Of a DNA stretch of 14,423 bases, positions 1 through 14,423 are shown in pieces. The notes under the pieces are model-generated. The model worked only from the letters and a program-made list of their open reading frames with translations. It searched no databases and had not been told where the DNA came from. The stretch's first letter is position 1. The number at the start of each line of letters is the position of its first letter. The stretch lies in the IMG/VR virus record IMGVR_UViG_2531839179_000017, one strand, 5' to 3'. Source of the DNA: a virus (lineage: Duplodnaviria; Heunggongvirae; Uroviricota; Caudoviricetes). A program made the position numbers and the translations under genes.

Positions 1-165
1 ATGGCAAAGCCGATCATCACGCTCAATGGCCTAAAAATCGTCATTATGTTGGGAATGCTGGTCATTATTCTCTGCGGTATCCGTTTTGCCGCCGAGATCA
101 TCGTGCCGTTTATTCTCGCATTATTTATTGCTGTTATATATAACTTATTTCACATAACACGTTGA
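1..165 (+). pseudogene. Truncated 5' fragment of a host inner-membrane protein gene (AI-2E/PerM-type transporter-like N-terminus); 54 codons then stop
   Basis: ATG at nt 1; translation [45 protein letters not shown] is a hydrophobic transmembrane N-terminus that I recall as TqsA/YdgG-like (recall only, not verifiable here). From about nt 136 the frame runs into AT-rich sequence (IYNLFHITR) and stops at 163-165. Absent from the ORF track because it is under 60 aa. Confidence 0.5.
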
Positions 166-496
166 TTTAATTAAATAATTTTCACCGCAAAAAGTGCCAA
201 AAATCGCAAAATGACTACACCAGTGACTACACCGTTCGGTGCACTGTATGAAACAACGTGGAACAAATAGACACAAGAAATATACAGGCGGATCATCTTT
301 CCAGGGGGAAGCGCACCAATTCATGAGGGGCGTTAATGTCGATATGGGGATCCCCACCTACCGGAATTTTTTTCCGGTTAAACGTTAATCAGGCTGGTGG
401 GCTTTACCTGTTCGGTAGGTGTTATGATTATCGTAATACCTTTCCCCCAATGGGGTAAAAGCATCAACCGTAACGAAAGTCGTTATGGTTGCCACT

Positions 497-609
497 GATA
501 CCCCAAATTTGGGTATCACGAGTAAGACCCAAAATCTGGGTGTTACTCTTACTACCCAAACTACGGGTAGTTTCCGTAGTTTCATGGTCGAGTTGCAGAT
601 CTGCAACTC
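497..609. repeat. Array of three related stem-loops (497-517, 527-541, 552-570) followed by a perfect 20-bp palindrome (590-609)
   Basis: GATACCC-CAAATTT-GGGTATC, ACCCA-AAATC-TGGGT and CTACCC-AAACTAC-GGGTAG share an ACCC-AAA-N-GGGT core; GAGTTGCAGATCTGCAACTC is self-complementary. The ORFs called here overlap one another in three frames, so the region is treated as non-coding. Confidence 0.6.
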
Positions 610-902
610 CCCCATTAACCACAGGCGAATTTCCGCCTTCGGTCATTCCTTAATCATCTGCGTAATCATAATGATTATTCAGCAAGCGCAATTTTGCACT
701 TTGCTTAAAGTTCAGCGAGTTACCGCGCCGACTTCCTCAAATTGAGGTTTCCGAAAATATCAGCGGGTTAGCGATTAAGCTGATCATTAATTAAACTGCG
801 AAAATTTCGTAGTTTGTGACTGTCTTTCAGGCAGCTTGTTAACAGTCCTCAGAAGCGAGGGATGTAGCCACCCATTTTTGGTCCGTCGGGAATATCAACC
901 AG

Positions 903-1184
903 TTACCGCCGCAACCGCTCCGGCTTCTTCCAGTGGTACGTTATTTTCTCCTTCTCCCGATACATCTCCACGCGGCGACGGTAGGCCAGCAACTCAAGAG
1001 CTCTGGTTCGTATGTTGCGCATATCCACGCCATTAAGTTCTATACCATCACGGCGCATCACCTCAGCAACAACACGCGCATAGTTTTCGGCTGTCACGCT
1101 GTCCGGCTGCGTGGCCTGTTCGTCAGCCTGCTGGCTGATTCCGGCAACGCGGCGGATTAATCCCGTTATTTCGGCTTCTGTCAT
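903..1184 (-). CDS. Hypothetical protein, last gene of the packaging operon
   Basis: 93-aa ORF; ATG at 1184 preceded by TGAGG about 9 nt upstream and placed 14 nt after the large-terminase stop (1198-1200). No family recognised. Confidence 0.45.
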   Translation of the reverse strand: MTEAEITGLIRRVAGISQQADEQATQPDSVTAENYARVVAEVMRRDGIELNGVDMRNIRTRALELLAYRRRVEMYREKEKITYHWKKPERLRR

Positions 1185-1197
1185 GCTGCTGACCTCA

Positions 1198-2859
1198 TTA
1201 CACCCCGCTAAATTCTTCCAGTTTCTGGCGGTGGCTGTCGCTTATATCAAAAGCAAAATCCTCATGCTCTGCCTGGAATGTACCAAACGCCATCAGCGCC
1301 GCCACGCTCGGGTCTATCTTGTTCGGTGATTTTTTCTTGTTCGGCTTGATATTGGCGTTCGCGTCACTCTGCATCACGACGTTACTCATCGACCAGGACA
1401 ACACCGGATCGCCACGATGCACAATCACCCTGCGGTTAACAAAAACTTCGAACGATTTCGCCGCCGGACTGAATCTGAGGTAGGTTTGCGGGAACGGCTC
1501 CACCTCAAAACCTGCCCCCTGTAATTGCGTTCTGAGATGCGTGGCGTTCCACGTATCAAAGCCCACCAGCCTGATATTAAATTTCTCCGCGTCCTGCATG
1601 ATGTCATCTCTGATCCGGTCGTAATCAATGCAGTCGCCAGGCGTTGTGCGTATCCAGCCTGCTTTAGCCCACTGACGATAGATGGCGCGGTTTTTATTGG
1701 CGGGGTTCTGTAGCTGAAATTCCGGCAGATAGTGACGGGAAACCAGCATAATGGTTTTACCGACCGGAAAGGCATAGCACACGCTGGAAATATCGCTGGT
1801 TGATGATAAGTCCAGCCCCGCGTAACACTCCTGGCCGTGTAAATCTTCCTCCGTGAACGTTCCGGCACACTCAGCCCATGCGCCGTTACCCATCCACGGG
1901 GTAGCCCCCTGGCACCAGATATTAAATCGCTTTGTCATCATCTCCACCCACTGCGACGGAATACCCCGCGCTTTCTGGATGGTTGAGGCCAGTTTTTCAC
2001 GATCCACGGAAACATCGATGTTAGGGTTAGCCTTTATCCACATCGCCGGATCATCAACCTCGTTTTCGTCGTCCAGCTCGTAAATCAGCACAAAAATTGA
2101 ATCGTTGACCTCTTCGCCGTCCAGGATCTGGCAGCAATAATCATAGTGCTGTTTACAGGCTGAAACGACGTTACTGCCCGATGTGGTAATGGCAAATAAC
2201 AGCCCTTCGGGACGTGCGCCCATCCCCAGCTCAAGCGCGGAATAAACGCCGTTATCGGGGTGTAGGTGGTATTCGTCCACGATGGAAAGGCTGGGGTTTG
2301 TTCCCTCGATGGTTGCCGCTTTTGCTGCCAGCGGCTTTAACAGGCTGTTGCTTTTCGGGTGCATCACCTTGTGGGCCTGAATATTCACCCGCCTGCGTAA
2401 CGGTCGGGATAAAAGGCACATCTGACGCGCATCATCAAAAACGATCCGCGCCTGGTCACGGCTCACCGCTGCGGTGTAAATATCCTGCTGCCCGTTCTCC
2501 ATAATCAGAAACCAGTTAGCCAGAATCGCGGCGGTCGTGGATTTCGCATTTTTGCGCGGCACTTCGATAAAGGCGCTCGTATATTTGCGCCGTCCGGTGG
2601 CCTTAACCTTAAAGCCGAGGATGCACGCAAAGGCGAACTGCTGCCACGGCTCCAGCTCAATGGGGCTACCGCGCATTGCGCCTTTTACGTGCGGGCACAC
2701 CCTGGAAAAGGCAATAAACCGCTCCACAACCTCACGATCGAACGTGTAAAGGGGGCTTTCAAGGTCCGAAAAGTACCGTTTAACGGCCTGTTTCAGCCGT
2801 TTACAGGCCGGAATTTTGCCCGTTTTTACGTCTTCTGCGTACTTATTCCAGGCGGTCAA
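1198..2859 (-). CDS. terL: Terminase large subunit (HK97/Terminase_1-like ATPase-nuclease)
   Basis: 553-aa ORF with typical TerL N-terminus (TAWNKYAEDVKTGKIPACK) and overall TerL-like length and composition. First codon is TTG at 2859 with AGGA about 6 nt upstream; overlaps the terS 3' end by 17 nt. Confidence 0.85.
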   Translation of the reverse strand: MTAWNKYAEDVKTGKIPACKRLKQAVKRYFSDLESPLYTFDREVVERFIAFSRVCPHVKGAMRGSPIELEPWQQFAFACILGFKVKATGRRKYTSAFIEVPRKNAKSTTAAILANWFLIMENGQQDIYTAAVSRDQARIVFDDARQMCLLSRPLRRRVNIQAHKVMHPKSNSLLKPLAAKAATIEGTNPSLSIVDEYHLHPDNGVYSALELGMGARPEGLLFAITTSGSNVVSACKQHYDYCCQILDGEEVNDSIFVLIYELDDENEVDDPAMWIKANPNIDVSVDREKLASTIQKARGIPSQWVEMMTKRFNIWCQGATPWMGNGAWAECAGTFTEEDLHGQECYAGLDLSSTSDISSVCYAFPVGKTIMLVSRHYLPEFQLQNPANKNRAIYRQWAKAGWIRTTPGDCIDYDRIRDDIMQDAEKFNIRLVGFDTWNATHLRTQLQGAGFEVEPFPQTYLRFSPAAKSFEVFVNRRVIVHRGDPVLSWSMSNVVMQSDANANIKPNKKKSPNKIDPSVAALMAFGTFQAEHEDFAFDISDSHRQKLEEFSGV

Positions 2860-3199
2860 GCTCGTCCTCTTCTTCTGTTTCCGGTGGATTTTTACGGCGG
2901 CTTATCGGGTCAAAACCGAGCAAGGAGGCCATTTTTATCATCACTCTTTCAGCGTCGGATTTTGCGCTTAATGCGGGGTTTCTGCTCTCGCCGCCCTGAC
3001 TGTTAACAATGCTGAACCCGCGCGCCGCAAGGTCTGCAACGGCTTTCCGGTAAATGGAGTAGTTGACACAATACAGTTCCAGATTACTCCAGTCGGCGGG
3101 GGTAAGGTCTCCCCGTTCCGCAAGCTGCCGCGATTTTTCCCGCCACTGCTTCACGGCGATATCATCCAGGTAGGCGGGGGCTTTCGGTGGTCTTGCCAT
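2843..3199 (-). CDS. terS: Terminase small subunit (P27-family-like)
   Basis: 118-aa ORF, ATG at 3199; sequence MARPPKAPAYLDDIAVKQWRE...LELYCVNYSIYRKA resembles P27-family small terminases; sits immediately upstream of and overlapping terL. Weak Shine-Dalgarno. Confidence 0.7.
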   Translation of the reverse strand: MARPPKAPAYLDDIAVKQWREKSRQLAERGDLTPADWSNLELYCVNYSIYRKAVADLAARGFSIVNSQGGESRNPALSAKSDAERVMIKMASLLGFDPISRRKNPPETEEEDELDRLE

Positions 3200-3244
3200 G
3201 CTTATTTTTTCGCCAGATTATTTTTCAAAAAATTCCCGTGCATA

Positions 3245-3310
3245 AAAATTTGAGGAGGCGGTCGGTGCCCGGCGGGGTCGGGTTTGTCCTGAAAACGCCC
3301 CCCACCCCGT
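3245..3310. other. Candidate cos / packaging-initiation region in the HNH-terS gap
   Basis: About 290-bp gap between HNH stop (3489) and terS start (3199) containing a GC-rich block GAGGAGGCGGTCGGTGCCCGGCGGGGTCGGG flanked by AT-rich runs. In HK97-like cos phages the cos site lies between the HNH gene and terS. Position-based inference only. Confidence 0.3.
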
Positions 3311-3488
3311 CATACAGCCTCATCAGCGATTGCGGAAACATTCCATAACCTCGCGGTCACGGTCGGTTAATCGCTTCGCTGTGATGCGTTCTGCGCGTCC
3401 TGACGCTTTATCTTTATGCCCTGTTTCCTGTGTCTTCCATGCGTCACGCTGCCTTATAAGTCCACGGATAAGGCGGTTTTGTTCCCGC

Positions 3489-3929
3489 TCATTCATCAGC
3501 GTCATACATCCAGTTATTGCGGTTAGCGGCCCGTTCTTCCTCCTCACGGAATCCGCCAGCGGCACGCTTGCTTTTTGTTGCCGGATCAAGCCACTTCGTT
3601 TTCTGGTTATGACACGCCTGGCACAATGGCTGATGGTTCCATTCGGGCCAGAAGAGAACATCATCACCGCCATTAATCGGGATAATGTGATCCACCACCA
3701 CGGCGGGCGTATATATCCCCTTCTCAAGGCATCGCACGCATAACGGGTTTTTACTCAGATACATGGCGCGGTATTTGTCCCACTGTCTGGAGTACCCACG
3801 CGCGCGGCGGTGTCCTCGTCTGGCATCCTCTGCACGCCATGCCGCCCGCCTGTGCTCCTCACACTTGCCGGACTTCACGCGCCTGTTACAGCCTGGTTCT
3901 GTGCATCGTCTTAATGGTTGCCACGGCAT
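3489..3929 (-). CDS. HNH endonuclease (terminase-associated)
   Basis: 146-aa ORF, ATG at 3929; Cys-rich N-terminus (CTEPGCNRRVKSGKCEEH), catalytic-like DHIIP...N...W.E.NHQPLCQACHNQK motif; located directly upstream of terS as in HK97-type packaging modules. Confidence 0.8.
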   Translation of the reverse strand: MPWQPLRRCTEPGCNRRVKSGKCEEHRRAAWRAEDARRGHRRARGYSRQWDKYRAMYLSKNPLCVRCLEKGIYTPAVVVDHIIPINGGDDVLFWPEWNHQPLCQACHNQKTKWLDPATKSKRAAGGFREEEERAANRNNWMYDADE

Positions 3930-4225
3930 CAGTACACCCCCACATCACGGTAAGCCGTCCAGAGTGCGCCTATCGTCATGGGTACGCGTGTTTTTGCGTT
4001 ATCCGCGACAATCTGGCGATTTTCATACAGGTGAGCGATAAACATCATGCAGCCAATCTTTATGGCTGGCGTGAACGCCAGCCCGTCATCAAAGCGCCTG
4101 CCTATATGTATCTGGCACGCCTCAAGCGATGCGGCAATGTATCCGCTGATTAACTGGTCTTCCTCGTCGCCATCGATGCGGCAATGGAGTTTCACTTCTT
4201 CCAGGGTGATAAGTTCTTCTGTCAT
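3929..4225 (-). CDS. Head-tail connector protein (gp6-like)
   Basis: 98-aa ORF, ATG at 4225; stop overlaps the HNH start (TGATG). Size, position and sequence are typical of phage head-tail connector/DNA-packaging gp6-like proteins. Confidence 0.6.
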   Translation of the reverse strand: MTEELITLEEVKLHCRIDGDEEDQLISGYIAASLEACQIHIGRRFDDGLAFTPAIKIGCMMFIAHLYENRQIVADNAKTRVPMTIGALWTAYRDVGVY

Positions 4226-4560
4226 TTTTCCGCGCCCTCACGACAAAGAATTTCAAGGCGTGTCCTGGCGGCATCCGGCAGCGGCTGCCCGATGATATTC
4301 AGTACACGCCCCGCCAGCGGCCCCGTATTGACCTTTACCCGGCTGGTGGCGTTGATGTCCTTCCTGTAGCGTATCCATATCCTTACCGTTCCAGTCGCCA
4401 GTTCTGCACCCGATGAAATGGCCTCCTTGCTGCTGATCATGTTCACGCTTGCCCAGAGTGTGTGACCGTCCACCCACGTTTCGAGTATTTCGCCGGTTAT
4501 ATCCCTGGTCTGTTTCAGGGTCTGAATCGTTACCCTGTCACGCAGTCGCCCTATGTTCAT
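4222..4560 (-). CDS. Head-tail adaptor / head-closure protein
   Basis: Start chosen at ATG 4560 (MNIGRLRDRVTIQ...), which overlaps the portal stop as ATGA; the track's longer start at 4602 lacks a Shine-Dalgarno. About 112 aa, consistent with head-tail joining proteins. Confidence 0.6.
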   Translation of the reverse strand: MNIGRLRDRVTIQTLKQTRDITGEILETWVDGHTLWASVNMISSKEAISSGAELATGTVRIWIRYRKDINATSRVKVNTGPLAGRVLNIIGQPLPDAARTRLEILCREGAEK

Positions 4561-5768
4561 TCCGGTTTTTCTCCCTCGCTGATTTTTACTTCCTGTTTCC
4601 ATGCCTGGCTGAACTCATCACCACCATCACGCGGGGACAGCCCTTCACGTTCGCGGGCTTCGTTCGGGCACATAACGCCGGATTTGATGCCGCGTTCATA
4701 GGTGGCAAAGCGTTCGCCAGGAGTGGCCCGTAACAGGTCCGCGCTGTCAAACTCCACCTGATACCGGATACCAGGTACAGGTGAGGCCACCAGCAGGGCG
4801 TTTTTTATCTGCTGCTCAAAGTTCGCCAGCCACGGACGCATCGTCATGGTGAGAAATGCGCGGCTTGCCTCGCTGAAATTGCTGTAGGTGCTGTTGCTGT
4901 ATTCCTGCAAAAAAATCGGCGAGACGTTGAACATTCGGGCGATGTCTTCAATGGTGAAGCGACGGGAGGCCAGCCATTCAGCATCCTGATTACTCATGCC
5001 CAGCTGCTGATAGCTCATACCCCCTTCAAGGATGGGCGTTTTTCCGGCGTTTCTGGCCCCTTTGTAGCGTTCCAGTGCGGCTAATGCCTGTTTGCCCTTC
5101 ACGCCGTCCAGCCATTCGCCTGACGTGATAACCCCTGCCGCCATCATGCCATCACGCATCACGCTCGCGCCGTGGCGTTGTTGGGCCAGCCCAAGCCCCA
5201 GCGATTCGCGGCAGATGGTTACAGGTGAGCGCCCCATAAAACCGTCATCCGTGGAGTAACGAAGGTGGAGAACCTCCCACGGTAAATAGTTGCGGGTGTT
5301 TCCGGTGTAGGCGTCAGTGATGCAGTAGCGCCAGTTATGCTCACCTGTCTGCTCCACGTTCACCGACTGCGGCGGGTAAGGATGCAAAGCCACCGGAAAA
5401 CCATCACGCCCCCACTGAATCACCGCATAAGCATTACCGTTTAACAGGCAGTGGCGGATCATCATTCGCTTAAACTGGTAGGGGGTTTGCCATGCGTTCG
5501 GGCGCTCGTTGAGGATGTGATCGACCGGATGAGAATCAAGCCACTCTCGGGCCTCCTTCCCCTTCTCATTGCGTACCAGGTACAGGTAACACGGCATGGT
5601 AGCCACCGCCTCAGAGATGACCGTGACGGCGTTCATGACGGCGGGCAGTGATTCCGCTGTCCCCGATGATACGTACTCACCCGCCCCCGTGTTCGATGTG
5701 CCAGCCAGCGCCATAAACTCATCAAGCGTCATGCTGCGCTGCTCTTTTTTTCTTCTGAAAGGCCACAT
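4557..5768 (-). CDS. Portal protein (HK97 family)
   Basis: 403-aa ORF, ATG at 5768; length and conserved central region (YLPWEVLHLRY...GRSPV...) are typical of HK97-type portals; located between protease and adaptor genes. Confidence 0.85.
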   Translation of the reverse strand: MWPFRRKKEQRSMTLDEFMALAGTSNTGAGEYVSSGTAESLPAVMNAVTVISEAVATMPCYLYLVRNEKGKEAREWLDSHPVDHILNERPNAWQTPYQFKRMMIRHCLLNGNAYAVIQWGRDGFPVALHPYPPQSVNVEQTGEHNWRYCITDAYTGNTRNYLPWEVLHLRYSTDDGFMGRSPVTICRESLGLGLAQQRHGASVMRDGMMAAGVITSGEWLDGVKGKQALAALERYKGARNAGKTPILEGGMSYQQLGMSNQDAEWLASRRFTIEDIARMFNVSPIFLQEYSNSTYSNFSEASRAFLTMTMRPWLANFEQQIKNALLVASPVPGIRYQVEFDSADLLRATPGERFATYERGIKSGVMCPNEAREREGLSPRDGGDEFSQAWKQEVKISEGEKPE

Positions 5769-5769
5769 A

Positions 5770-6342
5770 TCACACCCCCGCTAAATCCGCCCACCAGCGG
5801 CGATTATCCGCACGCGGCATTTTTTCGGGGTGCTGCTCGTACAGGGAGCGGCGGGCCAGCTCCACGCCGGAATCAGGGTAAGCCGGTACGGATGTAACGG
5901 TAATTTCGTATAGTTCCGCCACCAGCACGGTGCGCACGCATGGATCTGTTGTGGTATCCCATACATCCTTACGGGAACGAAAGCCAAAGCTCATGCCGGA
6001 TATATCACCTCGTTTAACCAGTTCGATAACGTCGCGCCCTGTACTGGTATCCGGTGGGGTCAGTTCAAAGCGTAACCCTGTTTCGTCCTCTTCCAGTTTC
6101 AGCGTGCCGGAACGGGTGCGCCCCAGTAACATGCTGTGGTCATGCTCATACAGGCCGCGAACGTCATTACCCGCCGCAAGCCACTCAGTAAACGCCCCCC
6201 GCTGGAATTTTTCGTAAAACTCCCCCCATAGCAGTTCTGAAAGCTTATCCCAGCGAACAACGTAGCCCGTCAGCGTACCGGCTCCGCTGGTAGTGATTTC
6301 CGATGACCGGATTTCCATACTCTTCATAATTTTTTCACCCAT
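5770..6342 (-). CDS. Prohead maturation protease (HK97 family)
   Basis: 190-aa ORF directly downstream of the major capsid gene. Three in-frame ATGs (6342, 6327, 6318); those at 6327 and 6318 have better Shine-Dalgarno-like sequences. Sequence is characteristic of HK97-like prohead proteases. Confidence 0.8.
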   Translation of the reverse strand: MGEKIMKSMEIRSSEITTSGAGTLTGYVVRWDKLSELLWGEFYEKFQRGAFTEWLAAGNDVRGLYEHDHSMLLGRTRSGTLKLEEDETGLRFELTPPDTSTGRDVIELVKRGDISGMSFGFRSRKDVWDTTTDPCVRTVLVAELYEITVTSVPAYPDSGVELARRSLYEQHPEKMPRADNRRWWADLAGV

Positions 6343-6381
6343 AAAACACTAAAGGGGCTTTTAAGCCCCTTCTGTATGCTG

Positions 6382-7546: not shown

Positions 7547-7576
7547 GTCCTGGGGTTAAGTAAGGAACTCCAGGAC
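7547..7576 (-). promoter_or_regulatory. Hairpin in the capsid leader that sequesters the Shine-Dalgarno; attenuator-like
   Basis: On the mRNA strand: GUCCUGG, 16-nt loop, CCAGGAC, then U7, then AUG (7539). The AGGA ribosome-binding site lies in the 3' arm of the stem and the U-run runs into the start codon. Confidence 0.4.
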
Positions 7577-7628
7577 GCGGCAAAAACTCAACCGTTTTTC
7601 ATAAGGAAATCAGTAATCGCACCGATCG

Positions 7629-7678
7629 TTTTCCCGCCTGGTAATGAATATTGGCGAGCACATTAACAGGCGGGAAAA
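7629..7678. promoter_or_regulatory. Perfect 12-bp inverted repeat (TTTTCCCGCCTG ... CAGGCGGGAAAA) with 26-bp spacer upstream of the capsid operon
   Basis: Exact 12/12 complementarity at 7629-7640 and 7667-7678, in the 290-bp gap between the early operon terminator and the capsid gene. Confidence 0.5.
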
Positions 7679-7795
7679 TGGCCCCAGCGTCCTGGCACCA
7701 CGGGCGAGAATAATCATGATTCAGGTCGGGTAAAATATGCCGTTCCGGTCAGCGAGCAACGTGGAACAACCACGAACAAATAATTTACAAAACAT

Positions 7796-7820
7796 GACAA
7801 AAAGCCGGATTGCTCCGGCT
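7796..7820 (-). terminator. Rho-independent terminator ending the early/replication operon
   Basis: Minus-strand RNA: AGCCGGA-GCAA-UCCGGCU followed by UUUUUGUCAUGUUUU, beginning 6 nt after the TAA stop (7827-7829) of the PerC-like gene. Confidence 0.7.
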
Positions 7821-7826
7821 GTGTGA

Positions 7827-8099
7827 TTATCTGTCCTGGTAATTTCGCCATATTTCATCGCTTACACCATCTATACCCATTTCAGCATAAGTGCGATCTA
7901 CTGCCTTTCTCAGGTCTCCGAAGTTATCCGGCGGCTCCGGTGGCTTCTGTGCCTTCCTGGAACATTCCAGCCGTCGCATCGTAACCTGATGCCGTTCCTT
8001 GTCTGTCTCCACCAGCAGCATGACTTCACCCCATCGCGCCGCCGCCCTCCGGTAAAAGCCTTTCGCCTCGAGTTCTTCCGCTATGCGGTCATGTACCAT
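7827..8099 (-). CDS. PerC-family-like small transcriptional regulator
   Basis: Start chosen at ATG 8099 (MVHDRIAEELEAKGFYRRAAARWGEV...) with GAGGGGG 5 nt upstream; the track's longer ORF starts at a GTG inside the ssb gene. The AE.LE.KG..RRAA.RW motif matches my recollection of PerC/Pch-type activators (recall only). Confidence 0.45.
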   Translation of the reverse strand: MVHDRIAEELEAKGFYRRAAARWGEVMLLVETDKERHQVTMRRLECSRKAQKPPEPPDNFGDLRKAVDRTYAEMGIDGVSDEIWRNYQDR

Positions 8100-8109: not shown

Positions 8110-8520
8110 TCAGAACGGAATACCGTCACCGTAAGGGTCATCGCCTCCCGCTGGTGGCTGATTACCCTGTGTGCCTGTGGTTTTGCGTCTGTTCCCGCCA
8201 GGACGTGCCGCACGGGCACTGATTACGCTGTCTGCAATAACCTGATAACCCTGCCGCGTTTCCCCGTTCTGTCCGGTCCACTGGCTGACCTGCATCGTGC
8301 CGGATACGCTGGCAACGTCGCCTTTTTGATGTTTAGCCAGGAAGTCGGCCTGCTTACCAAATGCGATGACCGATAGCCATAACGTAGCCTGCCCATCCTG
8401 CGCCTGACTACATGGCAACGATACCGCCATACGTGCCAGCGTCATTGGTGTGCCCTTGCTGGTCTGTTTTACCTGCGGGTCGTCCACCAGCCGCCCGTAA
8501 GCTGCTATCTGTGCTGTCAT
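8110..8520 (-). CDS. ssb: Single-stranded DNA-binding protein
   Basis: 136-aa ORF, ATG at 8520 overlapping the upstream stop as ATGA; OB-fold-like core (LWLSVIAFGKQADFLAKHQKGDVASVSGTMQVSQW), Gly/Pro-rich linker and acidic C-terminal tail ending DDPYGDGIPF, the classic SSB tip. Confidence 0.8.
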   Translation of the reverse strand: MTAQIAAYGRLVDDPQVKQTSKGTPMTLARMAVSLPCSQAQDGQATLWLSVIAFGKQADFLAKHQKGDVASVSGTMQVSQWTGQNGETRQGYQVIADSVISARAARPGGNRRKTTGTQGNQPPAGGDDPYGDGIPF

Positions 8521-8768
8521 GATTCCACCTCTCCGGTTTTAACGTTGATGGTTGTCACCTGTTCAGCTTCCGCAATCTCCCGCTCTGTCAGCGTGGCAAA
8601 ATTTGCCGCCGTCGTGGTCATGAATGCGCTTATCAGTTCGGGATGTGCTTTCGCGTATCCTTCCCCCGCGTGGCGGTCTATCGTTCTGATTGCCACCTTT
8701 AAGGCGTGCTCTGTCATGTCTAACGCTTTATATTTTGGCTCTGTTCTGTCTCTGTGTTTTTGAGTCAT
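8517..8768 (-). CDS. Hypothetical protein downstream of the origin
   Basis: Start chosen at ATG 8768 (MTQKHRDRTEPKYKALDMTEHALK..., about 84 aa), so the iteron cluster stays intergenic; the track's 127-aa version would read through the iterons. Translationally coupled to ssb. Confidence 0.45.
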   Translation of the reverse strand: MTQKHRDRTEPKYKALDMTEHALKVAIRTIDRHAGEGYAKAHPELISAFMTTTAANFATLTEREIAEAEQVTTINVKTGEVES

Positions 8769-8769
8769 T

Positions 8770-8975
8770 TGCCCACCTCTACCCACTTTTTTCGCCCACT
8801 TTTTACGTTTTCCCACTTCGTCCAACGTGGGAAATTTGGGATTTATATCATCTTGTTTCATAGGTATTTTTTTAGTGCCCACTTTTTGGGATATATACAC
8901 GTGGGAAAGTGGGTAATTTTGTTAAAATTCCGTTAAATCGCCCACCTTTCCCACTTTTAATGCCCACTTTTTACA
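8770..8975. repeat. Iteron cluster with AT-rich spacer: putative replication origin
   Basis: At least nine direct copies of a CCCAC(T)nTTT-type motif (for example GCCCACTTTTT at 8794, 8877 and 8962; CCCACTTTT at 8782 and 8950) plus inverted copies (GTGGGAAA at 8827 and 8901), interrupted by AT-rich stretches at 8838-8876; immediately 3' of the replicative ATPase gene. Confidence 0.7.
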
Positions 8976-10371
8976 GTGGTCCTACATCATCACCGTCAAT
9001 GTAGATCACGTCGTCTTTTTCCAGTTTGGCTAACCATCGTTTAAGGTGTTTTGTGTCATACCCCAGCTTTTTCATATCGTCACGTAACAGCGGGATCGTG
9101 CACTTGTCGCCGTGCTGTGTGCGTGAACGTATGCATCCCCATAGCGCGGTATGGTTTTCCGTCTTGTTGCCTGCCTCCTCGATGCGCTCCAGTTCAACGG
9201 GAGGGCGCGGCTTATCCACCACCACCAGCGACGTGATTAATTCACCGTCAGCGTCGGTAAAAAGCTCCACCACGCGTAAGTCATATGCGGCTTCTTTGAG
9301 TTCCTCCGCGTCCTTCATTTTGGTGCATGAGATAACCAGCGCTTCGCTTCCTGCGTCCTCCCTGCGTATCCGGTATTCAGCATCCAGCGAAGCACGAAAT
9401 GCACTGGAACCGCGCGCGCCTTTCGTCTCATCCTTGCCGGAATGGTGAACCACCAGCACCGTGGCCCCTGTGCGTCGTTTCAGTTCGTCACAACCACGGA
9501 TAAACGCCCCCATATCACGGGAATCATTTTCATCATTCCCACCAAAGCAACGCGCCAGCGTATCCAGAATAATCATGCGTACAGGTTTACCCGTTTCCCG
9601 CTCCACCTGACGGGCAGCGATAACCATTTCATCAACATCAAGCGGGGCAGCCGGAAAGATGGGGCGGTTTACCAGATACAGATTTTTCACCTGCTCATCG
9701 TGCACAACCTCCCAGGCTTTTACACGACGCGGAACACCTATACCGCCTTCACCAACCACATAGAGAACCGCACCATGTGCAACCCTGCGGCCTCCCCACT
9801 GGCGACCAGTGGCAACATGGCACGCCCACGATCCGGCAAGGAATGATTTATAGGACCCGCTAGCCCCGTATATGCTGCATAGCGATACCGCCGGAATAAT
9901 CCCCTTAACCACGTAATCCAGTTGCGTGTCGTATCCGGTAGATCCAACGCTCATCGGTAGCGTGGTTTTTCGCTGGTGGTTTTTTTCTTCCGCCGGCTCT
10001 TTCCCGCGCACCCGTTCCAGGTATTCGCGCCAGTTCTCCCGCATATGGCTGTGCATCCCTTCGGGGTAATAATTCGCATCAGTTACACCCGCCGCCGCCA
10101 GCTTGTGCGCAATGGCATTAATATTTGATGGCCTGATGTGGCCTGCCTTGTACAGCCGGACACAATAGCGCCCCTCGTCGATGATTCTCAGGTCTGCCAG
10201 TTCATCCAGTTGATCATCAGCCAGCACAACGGGAGGCACATTATCGCCAGCCAGTCGCCCGTCCTGTTCCTGCCACTGTTTCGCATGTGCCCAGGCATCA
10301 CTACCCGCAAAAATAATGACTTCGGTCATCTTGTCGTAAGGCTGTTTTTTTAAGTTCGGTGCGCTTTTCAT
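8971..10371 (-). CDS. Replication initiator ATPase/helicase (RecA-like, AAA_25/RepA-type) with C-terminal winged-helix-like region
   Basis: 466-aa ORF, ATG at 10371 overlapping the upstream stop (ATGA); Walker A GASGSYKS, Walker B-like RMIILDTLARCF, conserved VLVVHHSGKD...GARGSSA block typical of RepA/DnaB-like RecA-fold replicative ATPases. Confidence 0.8.
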   Translation of the reverse strand: MKSAPNLKKQPYDKMTEVIIFAGSDAWAHAKQWQEQDGRLAGDNVPPVVLADDQLDELADLRIIDEGRYCVRLYKAGHIRPSNINAIAHKLAAAGVTDANYYPEGMHSHMRENWREYLERVRGKEPAEEKNHQRKTTLPMSVGSTGYDTQLDYVVKGIIPAVSLCSIYGASGSYKSFLAGSWACHVATGRQWGGRRVAHGAVLYVVGEGGIGVPRRVKAWEVVHDEQVKNLYLVNRPIFPAAPLDVDEMVIAARQVERETGKPVRMIILDTLARCFGGNDENDSRDMGAFIRGCDELKRRTGATVLVVHHSGKDETKGARGSSAFRASLDAEYRIRREDAGSEALVISCTKMKDAEELKEAAYDLRVVELFTDADGELITSLVVVDKPRPPVELERIEEAGNKTENHTALWGCIRSRTQHGDKCTIPLLRDDMKKLGYDTKHLKRWLAKLEKDDVIYIDGDDVGPL

Positions 10372-10667
10372 TTCTTGCCCCTGAATCCGTTAATCATGGT
10401 TTTCAGCTTCTGGATGTTTGCCCGTGCCCTGGCGTTGCTGGTGGGCACGTTATGCGGCGCGGTCTGTACCAGAGAAAAATCACGCCGGAACTGATAAACA
10501 GGCATCACGCAATCATATTCGTAACCTTCACGGCGGTAAGTTACGCACCGTCCCGCCACGCCCTTAATCATTACCGTGCCGCCGTACTGGTCGCGGTAAA
10601 TATCACCGCGCATAAATTTAGGGTGAGTGTTGCCACTGGCAGTTAAGCCAGAATATTTAAGTTTCAT
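10368..10667 (-). CDS. Hypothetical protein (DUF4222-like by recall)
   Basis: 99-aa ORF, ATG at 10667 with GGAG 8 nt upstream; motif GDIYRDQYGGTVMIKGV...YRREGYEYDCVMPVYQFRRDF resembles the prophage DUF4222 family as I remember it. Confidence 0.5.
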   Translation of the reverse strand: MKLKYSGLTASGNTHPKFMRGDIYRDQYGGTVMIKGVAGRCVTYRREGYEYDCVMPVYQFRRDFSLVQTAPHNVPTSNARARANIQKLKTMINGFRGKK

Positions 10668-10672: not shown

Positions 10673-10906
10673 TTATTCTCCGGTGTGCTGTTCGTTATAT
10701 CTGTCGTGCAATGTCTCTATTTCCTGCAACTCATTTATTACAGGCTCAAGAAGCGTTATTAATGATGTAATAATCCGCGTTTTTTTTGCATTACGTTCAT
10801 TATCGCCAAAGGATTCAAGGCACATCCGCAATATTTCGTACATACCTTCAGCGTAAGCAAGGGCACTAAATGCGCGGTCTATTGTTTCAAGATAAATATC
10901 ACGCAT
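10673..10906 (-). CDS. Hypothetical small acidic protein (paralog C)
   Basis: 77-aa ORF, ATG at 10906 one nt after the upstream stop; predicted helical; shares a hydrophobic-helix-Cys-acidic motif (EILRMCLESF) with neighbouring ORFs. Confidence 0.5.
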   Translation of the reverse strand: MRDIYLETIDRAFSALAYAEGMYEILRMCLESFGDNERNAKKTRIITSLITLLEPVINELQEIETLHDRYNEQHTGE

Positions 10907-10907: not shown

Positions 10908-11129
10908 TTAATCCCCGTCCGTTGTTTTTCTTAAAACAGCTTCTGTCACGAAATCAGCATAGTTAGCGGCAATATCAAGAATATTTAGCCCTGTACCTCT
11001 GTGCTCATCAGTGCAAAGAAAGAAAAAAGCCACCCGCATAATTTCAGATATTGACGAAAGCGCATCAGCCGCATCATCAGGAACGCCGGAAAATTCTTGT
11101 TTCAGGGAATTAAAACGATCATCACGCAT
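10908..11129 (-). CDS. Hypothetical small protein (paralog B)
   Basis: Start chosen at ATG 11129 (MRDDRFNSLK...) immediately after a G8 run that acts as a Shine-Dalgarno; the track's longer start at 11177 overlaps the upstream gene by 55 nt. Motif PDDAADALSSISEIMRVAFFFLCTDE parallels the upstream ORF. Confidence 0.5.
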   Translation of the reverse strand: MRDDRFNSLKQEFSGVPDDAADALSSISEIMRVAFFFLCTDEHRGTGLNILDIAANYADFVTEAVLRKTTDGD

Positions 11130-11343
11130 AACCCCCCCCATTTTCACAATCAGCAACAAGAATATTTTTAGCGTCATTCAGCGACCGCGTTGCGATGTAT
11201 CGGATACATTCCAGGGCGAACAATGTGTATTCCTCCCGTTCTTCCTTTTGTGCAAGCTCTGCCGTGCATTCAATATCAATAAGCGCATGCATCAGCGTAG
11301 TGAGTGCGGCGGCGGCTGCGTCCGGACGGATGTTATTGCACAT
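11122..11343 (-). CDS. Hypothetical small protein (paralog A)
   Basis: Start chosen at ATG 11343 (MCNNIRPDAAAAALTTLMHALIDIECTAE...) with GGAGGGG 6 nt upstream, overlapping the upstream stop; C-terminus ENGGGYA is encoded through the G8 tract. Confidence 0.5.
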   Translation of the reverse strand: MCNNIRPDAAAAALTTLMHALIDIECTAELAQKEEREEYTLFALECIRYIATRSLNDAKNILVADCENGGGYA

Positions 11344-11764
11344 GGTGTACCCCTCCGCATTTTTTTTCGTTAGAAATAAGCGTTCTTCTTTCCTGTTCAT
11401 CGCTCAGGAATACGCAGACCTCACCGCTAAGGCGTTTAAGTAAGCCGATGATTGCCCCTGATTCGCTGTCGGTCATCATGCCAGGGTAATCCTCTGCCAG
11501 TGCGCAAATAACTTCGATTTGGTGGGCGCGTTCTGCTGCCTGTTGTAGTGTGATTTCCTGGCTCATAAGCCTACCCCCTTGGCGAATACGGGCAGCGAAT
11601 ACCATCACGCAGCCAGCCGGGGATTGCTGGCGTGCTTCCTGTTCGCTGGTGGCCTCAATGGTAATCACGCGCGGTTGTGCCGTGCTCAGGGCGATAAAAC
11701 GCCAGATGTATTTATTCAGGTTGTGCGAGCCCCGCCCTTGCGGGTGTGTGGTATGATTTCTCAT
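11333..11764 (-). CDS. First gene of the early operon; N-terminal Icd-like (cell-division-inhibitor-like) region plus C-terminal helical domain
   Basis: Start chosen at ATG 11764 (GAGG 6 nt upstream); the track's longer ORF starts at a TTG inside the operator. Motif YIWRFIALSTAQPRVITIEATSEQEARQ...VFAARIRQ matches my recollection of Icd-like proteins of P4-type elements (unverified). Confidence 0.5.
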   Translation of the reverse strand: MRNHTTHPQGRGSHNLNKYIWRFIALSTAQPRVITIEATSEQEARQQSPAGCVMVFAARIRQGGRLMSQEITLQQAAERAHQIEVICALAEDYPGMMTDSESGAIIGLLKRLSGEVCVFLSDEQERRTLISNEKKCGGVHHVQ

Positions 11765-11861
11765 AGCTACCTCGATACTTTCGCTATCGTTGGTGGTTAG
11801 AAGCCCGGTTAGTGTTAGCGCACTGCCGGGTTTCGTCGTTTCTGCACCTTGCGCCAACAAG

Positions 11862-11913
11862 GTGTTGAACACCAATTTAAACCCAGGTGTTAAACACGTC
11901 AAGTGTTGAACAC
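11862..11913. promoter_or_regulatory. Triple palindromic operator (GTGTT-N-AACAC) spanning divergent promoters
   Basis: O1 GGTGTTGAACACC (11861-11873), O2 GTGTTAAACAC (11887-11897), O3 AGTGTTGAACACT (11902-11914). Minus-strand promoter candidate: -35 TTGACG (11902-11897), 17-bp spacer, -10 TAAATT (11879-11874), with O1 at the start site. Plus-strand promoter candidate: -35 TTGAAC inside O3, -10 CATACT (11928-11933). Confidence 0.65.
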
Positions 11914-11962
11914 TTATTTTTTTCCTGCATACTGCATTTGTTTTTTATGAGGGGTACACCAC

Positions 11963-12142
11963 ATGGCGACAAAAGCAGTAAACGCAAAATCACAAACCGT
12001 TGCGGCAAGGGTTCCGCATGAAGTTATGAACAATGTTGAGGCGGTAAAAATGCCTGGCGAAAGTACGGGGCAATTTGTTACTGCAGCATTAAAACGAGAA
12101 GTTGAATATCGCCAGCGGCGCAAGGCCAAAGAACCAGAGTAA
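11963..12142 (+). CDS. Small ribbon-helix-helix-like DNA-binding protein; candidate repressor
   Basis: 59-aa ORF (absent from track, under 60 aa): MATKAVNAKSQTVAARVPHEVMNNVEAVKMPGESTGQFVTAALKREVEYRQRRKAKEPE; GAGGGG 8 nt upstream of ATG; beta-strand, helix, G-x-S/T turn, helix pattern typical of Arc/MetJ/CopG folds; divergent from the early operon. Confidence 0.5.
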   Translation: MATKAVNAKSQTVAARVPHEVMNNVEAVKMPGESTGQFVTAALKREVEYRQRRKAKEPE

Positions 12143-12199
12143 TCACCATCAGCGCCGTGGTGTAAGGTATTACGGCGCATTGCTATGCAGGACAACACA

Positions 12200-12373
12200 A
12201 TGACCGATAAAGAATTGACCAAAACATTATCACCGGCACGGAAAAGACGGCGCAGAAAGATAGAACATGAATCAGAAAGATTCGCGCCATGTGCTTTTGC
12301 CCTTGAGCAATTCCTTAAAGAGTACAGGGAAAAGCGCTCATTGCAGGTATGGCAACGAACTGAACCAGACTGA
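12200..12373 (+). CDS. Hypothetical small basic protein, second gene of the divergent unit
   Basis: Start chosen at ATG 12200 (MTDKELTKTLSPARKRRRRKIEHESERF...) with AGGA 8 nt upstream; the track start at 12185 lacks a well-spaced Shine-Dalgarno. Followed by a plus-strand terminator. Confidence 0.45.
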   Translation: MTDKELTKTLSPARKRRRRKIEHESERFAPCAFALEQFLKEYREKRSLQVWQRTEPD

Positions 12374-12468
12374 TTGCATTGCCCACCAGCCTGATAGCGG
12401 CTATCATCCCCGTGCTTATGTTTGGGATCACACACACAAACGGCGCAGCGGGTTATCTGTTCAGAAAG

Positions 12469-12496
12469 GCGGCTCCATTTCGGGGCCGCTTTTTTT
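12469..12496 (+). terminator. Rho-independent terminator of the plus-strand small-gene unit
   Basis: GCGGCUCC-AUUUC-GGGGCCGC (8-bp stem including one G-U pair) followed by U7 at 12490-12496. Confidence 0.65.
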
Positions 12497-12642
12497 ATGC
12501 CTGAAAAACCCCAATTTTGTGGTTTTCCAGTCTCACCAGGGCGAACGAATCCCCGCCCACGTTCTGGCGTATATTCAATCTTCATGGTTATAGCTCTGTG
12601 TTCAGATGATTGATGTGTGGCGGCTGTGTGCCGCCAGCGTGA

Positions 12643-12831
12643 TTAATGAACTGCCTTGCAGCTATCCTTCCAGGCCAGAACCTCGGATAAAGACCAGCCA
12701 ACGGAACGACCGCCAAGTTTACGACGTGATGGGAATTGTCCGGCCTTTTCCAAGCGGTAGCGGCATGAGCGGCTAAGGCCTGTTAGCTTTTCGCATTCTT
12801 TTTCACGTATAAACCGATCAGTGCTTAACAC
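12643..12831 (-). CDS. alpA: AlpA-family phage regulatory protein (HTH; excision/derepression activator-like)
   Basis: 62-aa ORF: REKECEKLTGLSRSCRYRLEKAGQFPSRRKLGGRSVGWSLSEVLAWK matches the AlpA/prophage CP4-57 regulatory protein pattern; first codon is GTG at 12831 with AGGGGG 5 nt upstream. Confidence 0.8.
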   Translation of the reverse strand: MLSTDRFIREKECEKLTGLSRSCRYRLEKAGQFPSRRKLGGRSVGWSLSEVLAWKDSCKAVH

Positions 12832-12990
12832 TATTGCCCCCTTTCGTTTCTTAAAGAGTTATTTCGTGTTCTATTGCGTTGGGATGTGTCTGATTGTGTC
12901 AGGATGATTCAGAGTTGGCAAATGTTGAGGTCGTATGGTTTACAGAAACAGGAATAATCAGGATAAAATCATTTAAATTCATGTTAATAC

Positions 12991-13022
12991 AAAGGCATAA
13001 AATATTGTTTCATGCCTTTTTT
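12991..13022. terminator. Hairpin with flanking T-run between int and alpA; possible terminator or insulator
   Basis: AAAGGCAT, 11-13-nt loop, ATGCCTTT, followed by TTTTCTC on the plus strand; on the minus strand the stem is followed by a broken U-run. Large loop, so weak. Confidence 0.25.
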
Positions 13023-13205
13023 CTCGCTATTTAAAGAGTGATTCGCTAGTGTATAAAAAACCAGTAACACATTAAAAATCAGCCACTTATAAATCCGTAC
13101 ACTTTTTCGCCTCTTGTTCGTAGTTGTTCCGCATTGTTGCTCATTGTTGCATGTTGTATCTGTTCGCATATCCAGTATGCGCATACTGAAAAAACACGAA
13201 AAAAA

Positions 13206-14423
13206 TTATTTTCTTCTGGCTACTGGTAGCGTGGTTACGTTTTCATGTGTTCCCGCCAGTATCCCTAACCGCTCCGTCCACATATCCAGCGCATTGCGTT
13301 TAGCATCCAGATAACGGGAATGATTATAAACTCGCTGCATTCCTGGCATCTGGTGGCCTGTAAGCTGCTCCACGACATGCGGATCAACGCCTAAATCGTT
13401 CAGCATGGTTGTAAAGGTGCGCCGGATGTCATGCAGTGACCAGTGAGGATGATTAAGCCTCCTGTGCGCTAATCTTCCATACTGCGATACGCTGGCCTCC
13501 TGTTTCACTTCCCCCAGCAATAAGCCCGTGTGCCTGTTCTGCTCCACCAGCTGCGTGACGAACGGCAGGATCGCTTCCGGTATGGGCCGGAATATTGCGA
13601 CCTTCGTTTTGCTGTGCTCCTTCGGAACGGTCCATAGCATTTCCGTGAAATCCCACTCCCCGATCTCCGATAACCTCAGTTCTACCGTTCTGGCTCCGAA
13701 GACAATCAGGAGGCGGATTAACGCGACGTAGTAAGGGGAGAATATTTTTTTGTCCAGTGCCTGCAATAATTCGCCAAGTTCTTTGTTACTTAAGACACGT
13801 TCGCTTATATCCGGTTTTTTCCCAACGTCCGCCACGTTCAGATCGTCCAGAACGTTGCTGATTGCATAGCGCCGCCTACGGCAGAACTTAAGCGCCTGTT
13901 TGCACGCCTGTAGCACGAATCCGGCAGTAACAGGCGTTCGCTTTGCCACCTGGTCAAAACAGGCCAGCCAGTGCCGTAGCTCGCATTTATCCAGCGGCAT
14001 AGCACCAATCTGCTGTATTACGTGATTATTAAGTCGCCTTTTCAGGGCGATATAATCCACGCGGTTTTCCTTTACGTAATACTCAAGCCAGTAGGTGAGC
14101 GCATCGCCAACCGTTACCGGCTTTAACGCTTCCTGTACGGTGTAATTAAGCTCATGACGTGGATTTTTCCCCTCTGCCAGCCATGCGCGACACTGGGCGG
14201 CTTTTTCCCTGGCTGATTTCAGGCTCAGATCAGGATAACTTCCCAGCTTAATGCGTTCGGGTCGTGTCTCCCTTCCCGTTCCGGCCCTGTATGTGAAATA
14301 CCAGGTCAATTTCCCTGATGTTAAATATTTCACGCTCAGGTTTCCGCCATCACTATAAAACGTGTTTTTCTCCGCTGGCTTACCATGAAGTTTCCTTAGC
14401 AAGGTATCGCTCAGTTTGTTCAT
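13206..14423 (-). CDS. int: Site-specific tyrosine integrase (P4/CP4-57-type, N-terminal arm-binding domain)
   Basis: 405-aa ORF with ATG at the last window base (14423-14421); N-terminal DUF4102-like region (KLTWYFTYRAGTGRETRPERIKLGSYPDLSLKSAREKA), C-terminal catalytic region with HDIRRTF...LTGHQ...RVYNHSRYL (R-H-R-Y signature). Confidence 0.9.
   Translation of the reverse strand: MNKLSDTLLRKLHGKPAEKNTFYSDGGNLSVKYLTSGKLTWYFTYRAGTGRETRPERIKLGSYPDLSLKSAREKAAQCRAWLAEGKNPRHELNYTVQEALKPVTVGDALTYWLEYYVKENRVDYIALKRRLNNHVIQQIGAMPLDKCELRHWLACFDQVAKRTPVTAGFVLQACKQALKFCRRRRYAISNVLDDLNVADVGKKPDISERVLSNKELGELLQALDKKIFSPYYVALIRLLIVFGARTVELRLSEIGEWDFTEMLWTVPKEHSKTKVAIFRPIPEAILPFVTQLVEQNRHTGLLLGEVKQEASVSQYGRLAHRRLNHPHWSLHDIRRTFTTMLNDLGVDPHVVEQLTGHQMPGMQRVYNHSRYLDAKRNALDMWTERLGILAGTHENVTTLPVARRK

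Follow-up and report, generated by a model that had tools for sequence, protein, structure and literature searches.

Does a stretch of viral DNA that carries head and packaging genes with no tail or lysis genes represent a phage satellite that builds its own capsids, or a prophage that has decayed? The initial annotation of the 14,423 nucleotides analysed here (the window) had favoured a satellite of the capsid-forming PICI (cf-PICI) kind and kept a degraded prophage as the alternative. We agree with the former and reject the latter: the window is, in all likelihood, a cf-PICI of the EcCIEDL933 type, ~14.5 kb long and inserted in the Escherichia coli gene tqsA. Such islands have been described since 2022, and this one is very close to the prototype. 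By analogy with it, the island would make its own small heads and take nothing but tails and lysis from a helper phage. The present analysis established the gene content and limits of the island, its lack of tail and lysis genes and its sequence identity to EcCIEDL933; dependence on AlpA, the formation of small capsids, packaging confined to island DNA and the taking of helper tails were demonstrated experimentally for EcCIEDL933 (Alqurainy et al., bioRxiv 10.1101/2022.09.08.507074; He et al., bioRxiv 10.1101/2025.02.11.637232).

According to published criteria, a cf-PICI spans 10-18 kb (He et al.) and contains an integrase, regulation, replication and a full capsid-to-terminase module without lysis or tail genes (He et al.; Alqurainy et al.). 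Lysis genes and the tail module are forbidden components in the cf-PICI model of SatelliteFinder, by which cf-PICIs occur in 13% of Enterobacteriaceae genomes. The window agrees on all three counts: size, module content and order, and lack of a lysis/tail module. Profile searches of its proteins (Pfam, NCBIfam, PHROGs) returned significant matches for every gene previously named from the sequence alone, namely int, alpA, helicase, ssb, capsid, protease, portal, adaptors, HNH, terS and terL (significance by Pfam/NCBIfam), and all 11 core components are present with the published order kept.

Island boundaries and attachment site

The host gene fragment recognised earlier at the window start is tqsA, cut by the insertion: positions 1-137 (plus strand) hold the first ~45 codons of this AI-2 transporter gene, as annotated by RefSeq at a 98.6% identical locus. 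The att core, the 9-mer TGCTGTTAT at 129-137, marks the junction at the terL-distal island end and recurs beyond int in two further islands, L001 and L016. The direct repeat that had been expected beyond the window was thereby located. In L016, a copy 99.98% identical to the window, a distance of 14,485 bp separates the two cores, and host genes start immediately outside them, as they do at the RefSeq locus, which leaves no room for tail or lysis genes; the flanks are host genes and contain no tail genes. The window holds 14,295 bp of these 14,485 bp, inside the cf-PICI size range, and the description "near-complete" was apt, since the int-proximal ~190 bp, second core included, fall outside it. 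The reconstructed uninterrupted tqsA junction is present in 5,174 of 5,426 E. coli genomes, the site being interrupted in ~4.6% of complete genomes. The window contains no tRNA or tmRNA, from which it follows that a tRNA is not the att site of the island.

Next to the core, a tandem pair of TGACTACACC (212-233) provides candidate integrase arm-type sites, and the pair is repeated adjoining int, outside the window. The tyrosine integrase itself (13206-14423, minus strand; Pfam Arm-DNA-bind_3 and Phage_integrase) measures 405 aa from an ATG at the window edge; RefSeq begins the gene 12 nt beyond this ATG, at a GTG that the window does not reach.

Known genes span 83% of the window and leave gaps of 123-765 bp. 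None of the scanned window ORFs, gap ORFs included, matched a tail, holin or endolysin family in Pfam or PHROGs, and these scans together with the gap analysis confirm the earlier statement that tail and lysis genes are missing. PADLOC found no defence genes among ten accessory or unassigned proteins. The sole Rfam match (E<=1), to symR, scored 33 bits against a gathering score of 61 and was taken as chance.

Head and packaging module

All eight packaging components score above the curated Pfam cutoffs and are encoded one after another on the minus strand, in the capsid-to-terminase arrangement pointed out in the initial annotation, which is that published for Proteobacterial cf-PICIs. The major capsid protein (6382-7539), of HK97 fold, is identical at 385 of 385 residues to PDB 9GYI, the 47.5 nm T=4 capsid of EcCIEDL933; RcGTA-type capsids come next in the PDB search. 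From this match we infer that the proteins of the island would themselves build small T=4 capsids and that no DNA but its own would be packaged. There follow, each with its identity to the EcCIEDL933 counterpart, the prohead serine protease S78 (5770-6342; Peptidase_S78; 97.9%), the portal protein (4557-5768; Phage_portal, E 9e-91; 99.5%), a 112-aa head-tail adaptor/head-closure protein (4222-4560, in an open frame reaching 4602; Phage_HCP; 92.9%), a gp6-like head-tail connector (3929-4225; Phage_connect_1; 99.0%) and an HNH endonuclease acting as packaging cofactor (3489-3929; HNH; 99.3%). Judged by the identity of its adaptor, the island could differ from the prototype in tail specificity. 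The next gene, orf60 (3323-3505, minus strand; phrog_3173), is 100% identical to an EcCIEDL933 ORF and, by gene order, is the counterpart of "gene 1792", mutation of which cut transfer severely (EcCIEDL933 literature).

The module ends with the P27-family small terminase TerS (2843-3199; Terminase_4, E 1.3e-23; 100%) and the large terminase TerL (1198-2859; TerL_ATPase and TerL_nuclease; 98.0%), and its DNA is 96.8% identical to that of EcCIEDL933. Between terS and orf60, positions 3200-3322 probably contain the cos region, a prediction from the position of cos in HK97-type phages and from the linear record of the related element vB_KppS-Ant (LR881103.1), whose start lies 22 bp upstream of terS and whose last genes are HNH and a small ORF.

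Replication, regulation and integrity of the island

The regulation and replication genes of a cf-PICI are likewise in place, with Pfam matches for the integrase, Phage_AlpA, an AAA_25 helicase and SSB, and an iteron cluster adjoins the helicase gene. The RepA-type replicative helicase has 466 aa (8971-10371; AAA_25, E 3.5e-44) and is accompanied by the SSB (8110-8520; 100% identical to that of EcCIEDL933), orf83 (8517-8768; phrog_1231; 89%) and a DUF4222 protein (10368-10667; 79%), all on the minus strand. The iterons noted earlier proved real as a sequence feature: 8 of the 23 near-matches to GCCCACTTTT in the window sit at 8771-8972, directly 3' of the helicase gene, among them all three exact and all three one-mismatch copies. 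With ~8 direct and 3 inverted copies of a GTGGG-core motif, this cluster is probably the replication origin, as predicted from its sequence.

AlpA (12643-12831, minus strand; Phage_AlpA, E 5e-18) is 98.4% identical to that of EcCIEDL933, and AlpA- and helper-dependent induction may by analogy apply here too. A 90-aa PerC-family regulator (7827-8099, minus strand; PerC, E 1.3e-44) is 98.9% identical to its EcCIEDL933 counterpart. Three small minus-strand ORFs, at 10673-10906 (phrog_2196), 10908-11129 (phrog_24341/2512) and 11122-11343 (phrog_5146), match annotated genes of relatives. They are followed by an Icd-like protein (NCBIfam phage_ICD_like) fused in frame to the next, 76-aa ORF (11333-11764, minus strand); tblastn places both parts in one frame, and in the relative L001 (strain 2013C-4991) they are two separate genes.

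The "repressor-like switch" proposed earlier is supported in part. A 198 bp intergenic region (11765-11962) separates the Icd-like gene from an oppositely oriented YlcI/YnfO-family gene (11963-12142, plus strand; NCBIfam NF041551, 59.7 bits against a cutoff of 30) and is, from gene orientation, a candidate regulatory switch; no recognised repressor fold was found. The YlcI/YnfO-family gene runs opposite to the rest of the island, and its substitutions favour third codon positions. A single-sequence AlphaFold model of its product (pLDDT 75) has a disordered N-terminus followed by two helices, a pattern that would suit a ribbon-helix-helix protein. Foldseek returned nothing for this model at E<9 in the PDB, and a repressor role for the modelled protein is unproven. 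A second small plus-strand gene, orf62 (12185-12373; phrog_21027, E 1.6e-15), follows. The 223-aa ORF at 11914-12585 (minus strand), downstream of alpA, is probably no gene: it has no family match and no third-position bias outside the stretch overlapping the ylcI-like gene.

An island of this kind might have become a fixed relic, inactivated for instance by the Icd-like fusion, by homopolymer frameshifts or by loss of a compatible helper. The fusion itself and three homopolymer runs that differ in length between the window and L016 (at 3297, 11131 and 11916) speak for such decay, as does the finding that EcCIEDL933 is induced by none of the 17 resident prophages of its strain (Alqurainy et al.). 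We consider it improbable, however, because the packaging, replication and integration ORFs all equal those of EcCIEDL933 or of relatives in length, the fused second ORF retains its own start codon, and the homopolymer differences spare every core gene, the first being intergenic and the other two lying at ends of ORFs.

Comparison with EcCIEDL933 and with phages

EcCIEDL933 is the prototype cf-PICI of E. coli O157:H7 EDL933 (Alqurainy et al.; He et al.). By capsid look-up it was located at ~1,680,150-1,695,610 of NZ_CP008957.1, in a roxA/phoQ context; the EDL933 intervals 1.70-1.75 Mb and 1.61-1.66 Mb held lambdoid prophages only and no EcCIEDL933. Gene order is equal in the two islands, and the capsid, TerS, orf60 product and SSB are 100% identical. 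They differ in att site, which is inside tqsA with core TGCTGTTAT for the window and in the roxA/phoQ intergenic region with core GGACATATTT for EcCIEDL933, and in their arm-type repeats, EcCIEDL933 having the variant GGTGTAGTTAAT at positions matching the TGACTACACC pairs. The integrases are 92.1% identical. In place of the RepA/AAA_25 protein of 466 aa, EcCIEDL933 encodes a DUF927 protein of 710 aa that is alike only in the first ~125 aa, and the two islands also have different small genes in the interval from alpA to rep. A 74-aa ORF upstream of the capsid gene is present only in EcCIEDL933 and a structured stretch at 494-647 only in the window, the islands measuring 15.4 and 14.5 kb, respectively. 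The differences in att site, integrase and replication gene accord with the shuffling of modules known from earlier work on PICIs.

Similar architectures are found in other hosts. The 16.5-kb "phage" record vB_KppS-Ant, from an induced prophage, and the Pasteurella "phages" Pmp7 and Pmp8 share cf-PICI architecture and size class with the window at 58-65% capsid and 68-81% TerL identity, but have other integrase and replication modules; in vB_KppS-Ant, terL is followed by a cargo gene of 765 aa.

A decayed HK97-like temperate phage, immobile after its tail and lysis genes were deleted, would also present head genes without tails. The head and packaging genes are indeed phage-derived, as the HK97-family Pfam matches and the RcGTA-type capsids next in the PDB search indicate, and HK97-like temperate phages share the HK97-fold capsid, prohead protease, portal and HNH-dependent cos packaging with the window. 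Genomes of ~40 kb, T=7 heads and the possession of tail and lysis genes set those phages apart from the window. Relatives of its capsid and TerL above 58% identity all come from records of 10-16.5 kb, except the 106.5-kb PQ569648, and in the phage collection the 36-47 kb genomes reach at most 40%; the check for nesting among ordinary phages thus found none at phage size apart from that exception. Against decay there is also the recurrence of the architecture: this capsid is shared by islands at tqsA and at roxA/phoQ whose replication modules differ, a related cf-PICI adjoins thiM, islands at all three sites are ~14-15.5 kb long, and at least 80% of the window, with full-length ORFs, was found in 223 of 5,426 complete E. 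coli genomes. Moreover, the left half is of PICI type, the identical capsid forms functional T=4 particles in EcCIEDL933, and neither tail or lysis genes nor remnants of them were found inside the att cores. A degraded prophage is accordingly very improbable.

Comparison with classical PICIs

The left half of the island, int/alpA/DUF4222/rep/ssb/perC, is that of classical E. coli PICIs (EcCICFT073 type; L015, L021 and L024), one of which, L021, has a RepA 100% identical to that of the window; a terminal orf93 and a structured non-coding stretch are also shared. Classical PICIs have no more than a capsid-like gene of lambda type, a decoration protein and a Nu1-type TerS; they lack the portal, protease, adaptor, connector, HNH and TerL, all of which the window has. 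For all the shared genes, a classical PICI or P4-like satellite that remodels helper capsids instead of building its own is refuted by gene content and has next to no probability, since the window encodes a full capsid protein along with the rest of the head set, including three components forbidden in the SatelliteFinder PICI model (portal, adaptor and connector), and the P4 markers sid, psu and delta are absent from Pfam and PHROG scans of the window.

Proposed life cycle

As a cf-PICI, the island would follow a cycle that we deduce by homology from EcCIEDL933. A helper phage would turn on alpA, the integrase would excise the island at the TGCTGTTAT core, and the RepA-type helicase and SSB would replicate it from the iteron cluster. 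The packaging operon would then yield the HK97-fold capsid protein, which, trimmed by the S78 protease, would assemble on the island's portal into small T=4 heads. TerS, TerL and HNH of the island would cut its cos and fill the heads with island DNA only; adaptor and connector would close the neck and dock the helper's long non-contractile tail. Lysis would be supplied by the helper and, after injection, the integrase would insert the island into tqsA of the new host. Helper-dependent induction via alpA and helper-supplied tails were demonstrated for EcCIEDL933 and relatives (Alqurainy et al.). The points weighed against the cf-PICI explanation were the different replication gene, the 92.9% identity of the adaptor, the Icd-like fusion, the homopolymer differences and the location of the second att end outside the window.

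Conserved non-coding features

Two non-coding features recur among these islands. The first is the 13-mer TTGTTCCACGTTG, with an att-arm copy at 254-266 (minus strand). Every complete cf-PICI examined, EcCIEDL933 included, has it in each att arm and again upstream of the capsid gene. In the window, the upstream control region of the packaging operon (7757-7820, minus strand) comprises a terminator-like hairpin after perC (7803-7820) and then TTGTTC-N4-TTGTTCCACGTTG (7757-7779).

The second is a very stable multi-hairpin stretch at 440-660 (fold z-scores -8.5 and -10.7), with similar palindromes at 500, 527 and 554. It lies beyond orf93, the conserved last island gene (903-1184, minus strand; phrog_1561, E 1.9e-55; 86% identical to its EcCIEDL933 counterpart), and is also present downstream of orf93 homologues in classical PICIs. 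A 5-copy alignment of 470-650 contained no clear compensatory changes and its most divergent copy, L024, disrupts the second hairpin; together these do not so far point to selection for an RNA structure.

It is possible, if on balance unlikely, that both features are undescribed functional sites. The 13-mer, TTGTT(C/T)CACGTTG, present in each att arm and once more ~220 bp upstream of the capsid gene, could be the site of one island protein, most plausibly AlpA, which could then couple excision to activation of the packaging operon. The three-palindrome stretch directly downstream of orf93 might act as a regulatory RNA or serve as an array of protein-binding sites shared by PICI ends.

Implications for PICI biology

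With a capsid identical to the prototype's and cf-PICIs known since 2022, the discovery value of the window is small. Its insertion truncates the AI-2 exporter gene tqsA. The window is a clean worked example of the EcCIEDL933 packaging module combined with another integrase specificity, for tqsA, and another replicon, and as that replicon is also found in a classical PICI, it illustrates module exchange between both satellite families.

Gene content and identity to the prototype island

The capsid protein encoded in the window is identical at 385 of 385 residues to PDB 9GYI, the 3.24 Å capsid structure of EcCIEDL933 (T=4, 47.5 nm across; He et al., bioRxiv 10.1101/2025.02.11.637232), the characterised capsid-forming phage-inducible chromosomal island (cf-PICI) of E. 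coli O157:H7 EDL933. We located EcCIEDL933 between roxA and phoQ in NZ_CP008957.1, and its packaging module is 96.8% identical at the DNA level (window 891-7825). TerS, orf60 and SSB are, like the capsid, 100% identical, followed by portal (99.5%), HNH (99.3%), connector (99.0%), PerC (98.9%), AlpA (98.4%), TerL (98.0%), protease (97.9%), adaptor (92.9%), integrase (92.1%) and orf93 (86%); ORF lengths all agree for the proteins compared. Judged by gene order, the EcCIEDL933 counterpart of orf60 is "gene 1792", whose mutation severely reduced transfer of that island. As for PerC, PMC11773190, citing Porter et al. 2005, states that LEE1 promoter fusions were unaffected by the PerC-like protein of EcCIEDL933.

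Pfam, NCBIfam and PHROG scans of the window ORFs matched the genes named in the initial annotation, nearly all of them on the minus strand. Beyond the start of the host gene tqsA (1-137) lies the minus-strand packaging operon: orf93 (903-1184), TerL (1198-2859), P27-family TerS (2843-3199), orf60 (3323-3505), HNH (3489-3929), gp6-like connector (3929-4225), head-completion adaptor (4222-4560), portal (4557-5768), S78 protease (5770-6342) and HK97-type capsid (6382-7539). A terminator-like hairpin separates the operon from PerC (7827-8099), and the minus strand continues with SSB (8110-8520), orf83, a 466-aa RepA/AAA_25 helicase (8971-10371), DUF4222 (10368-10667), three small ORFs and an Icd-like gene fused to an adjoining small ORF (11333-11764). 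Two small plus-strand genes, YlcI/YnfO family (11963-12142) and phrog_21027 (12185-12373), precede AlpA (12643-12831) and a tyrosine integrase with an arm-binding domain (13206-14423), both on the minus strand. GC content is 45-58% and the window holds no tRNA. Genes with an assignment account for 83% of the window, and ORFs in the uncovered gaps (123-765 bp) gave no match to tail, holin or lysin families in the PHROG scan, which bears out the proposal that the element has no tail or lysis genes.

Boundaries and insertion in tqsA

The att core TGCTGTTAT occupies window positions 129-137. In strain 2013C-4991, the best complete-genome relative (98.6% identical), a second core copy is found about 190 bp past the int start, followed directly by the remaining tqsA and then pntB. 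An exact RepA protein look-up returned assemblies that cover the window from end to end, among them L016, L018 and L022. L016 is 99.98% identical without a single substitution, and L018 and L022 are equally close. The two cores of L016 lie 14,485 bp apart, flanked by pntB/tqsA-3′ on one side and tqsA-5′/mdtJ on the other. Of 5,426 complete E. coli genomes, 5,174 carry the 91-mer joining both tqsA halves across a single core without interruption, and in 248 it is split. Core spacing, host flanks and the intact 91-mer elsewhere thus define a discrete 14.5-kb insertion with nothing hidden outside the window, and the description of the window as near-complete stands, only the int-proximal ~190 bp being missing. 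The island interrupts the tqsA open reading frame (AI-2 exporter) after roughly 45 codons and does not restore the gene, since in-frame stop codons lie ahead of the 3′ part.

The only differences between L016 and the window are single-base length changes in three homopolymer runs at 3297 (C6/C7), 11131 (C8/C9) and 11916 (T7/T8); these are either sequencing errors or tracts prone to slippage. The one at 11131 changes the C-terminal end of a small ORF.

Satellite or degraded prophage

The same gene content could be that of a degraded prophage, and we reject this reading on recurrence and on distance from full-size phages. Of 5,426 complete E. coli genomes, 223 carry 80% or more of the window, and the assembly collection lists the exact capsid sequence in 13,523 of its blocks. 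Among 50,697 phage records, capsid or TerL identity above 58% was confined to two groups: records of 10-16.5 kb that share the tail-less architecture (vB_KppS-Ant, Pasteurella Pmp7 and Pmp8) together with a 3.8-kb fragment record, S.Kent 1-2-1, and a single Klebsiella record of 106.5 kb, PQ569648. No genome of 36-47 kb exceeded 40%, in agreement with the published rarity of phage homologues of EcCIEDL933 proteins, mostly below 40% identity (Alqurainy et al., bioRxiv 10.1101/2022.09.08.507074). Together with the capsid identity, the packaging module and the discrete insertion, this upholds the cf-PICI interpretation.

Two of these records deserve comment. PQ569648.1 (Klebsiella phage P12620-1) carries a cf-PICI-type packaging module at 90.6-103.4 kb (TerL 82%, capsid 64% identical to the window), which may reflect a chimeric assembly or a satellite lying within a larger element. 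The 16.5-kb vB_KppS-Ant (LR881103.1) has, in the accessory slot after terL, a 765-aa gene (2036-4333) annotated as "tail length tape measure protein", an odd location for one; the annotation may be wrong and the gene a cargo or defence gene.

Module exchange

The replication protein of EcCIEDL933 is a 710-aa DUF927 protein, whereas the window encodes the RepA/AAA_25 helicase, similarity being limited to the first ~125 residues (67%). Small genes between alpA and rep also differ; EcCIEDL933 has, upstream of its capsid gene, a 74-aa ORF that the window lacks, and it lacks a 150-bp structured stretch present near the left end of the window (494-647). The att core of EcCIEDL933, between roxA and phoQ, is GGACATATTT, and arm-type repeats differ in step with the att sites. 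An identical RepA is found in a classical, non-capsid-forming PICI at roxA/phoQ (L021). Across both att sites the identical capsid is paired with replication genes of D5, DUF927 and RepA type, and regulator and primase trees are paraphyletic between PICI and cfPICI (De Sousa et al.). Module exchange of this kind is expected.

Replication and regulatory regions

All three exact and all three one-mismatch window copies of GCCCACTTTT lie immediately past the 3′ end of the helicase gene, in the 200 bp at 8771-8972, along with further inverted GTGGG cores. Iterons had been proposed and this clustering agrees; from position and repeat structure we infer a putative replication origin here.

The suggested repressor-like switch held in part. 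The 198-bp region 11765-11962, between the Icd-like operon and the oppositely oriented small-gene pair, resembles a divergent control region, and PHROGs labels Icd-like families "transcriptional repressor". The YlcI/YnfO protein model (pLDDT 75), however, shows a disordered N-terminus and then only two helices, with no significant match to PDB folds. The Icd-like gene and the next 76-aa ORF (11333-11902) form one joined frame in the window and L016, and separate, overlapping genes in 2013C-4991. A SymR antitoxin RNA match at 11765-11837 (+), in the divergent region upstream of the ylcI-like gene, falls below the Rfam gathering score (33 versus 61 bits, E 0.004) and is probably due to chance.

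RefSeq and the cf-PICI papers describe the alpA-downstream region as one large uncharacterised gene read from the same strand as alpA, 247 aa long in EDL933. Family matches and third-position substitution bias lead us to favour the two plus-strand genes (11963-12373) instead; the 223-aa minus-strand ORF (11914-12585) is probably spurious.

Conserved non-coding features

The non-coding stretch 440-660 (core 492-614), absent from EcCIEDL933, is predicted to fold very stably on either strand (z −8.5 and −10.7) and contains three similar palindromes, ACCC(C)AAA..GGGT, at 500, 527 and 554 (27-bp spacing). Counterparts 86-94% identical lie directly downstream of orf93 homologues in one classical PICI (L015) and two other cf-PICIs (L025, L026), and the copy in a second classical PICI (L024) is 73.5% identical. 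The stretch matches no Rfam family or annotation, and the five-copy alignment shows no clear compensatory changes.

A 13-mer, TTGTT(C/T)CACGTTG, occurs at 254-266 and 7757-7769, with a third copy outside the window (22592 in 2013C-4991, 5855 in L016). It is thus present in both att arms, ~25 nt from tandem arm-type repeats, and ~220 bp upstream of the capsid start codon, an arrangement seen in every complete cf-PICI examined, tqsA and roxA/phoQ types alike; in L005 and L021 an additional copy, inverted, sits between int and alpA. The motif may be a candidate site for a protein, such as AlpA, acting in both excision and packaging-operon control.

Proposed life cycle

Experiments on EcCIEDL933 and relatives, transferred by homology, suggest that a helper phage would activate alpA, after which the island would excise and replicate into concatemers. 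Its own capsid, protease and portal would build T=4 heads, and TerS, TerL and HNH would package unit-length cos DNA; cos probably lies between orf60 and terS (3200-3322), and the linear vB_KppS-Ant record starts 22 bp upstream of terS. Adaptor and connector would set the choice of siphovirus tails, the helper supplying tails and lysis, and filled heads might be released without tails and joined to them later. The island is nearly the prototype EcCIEDL933 itself and belongs to an already known kind: its family was described in 2022-2023, and an automated detector for it is available (De Sousa et al.).
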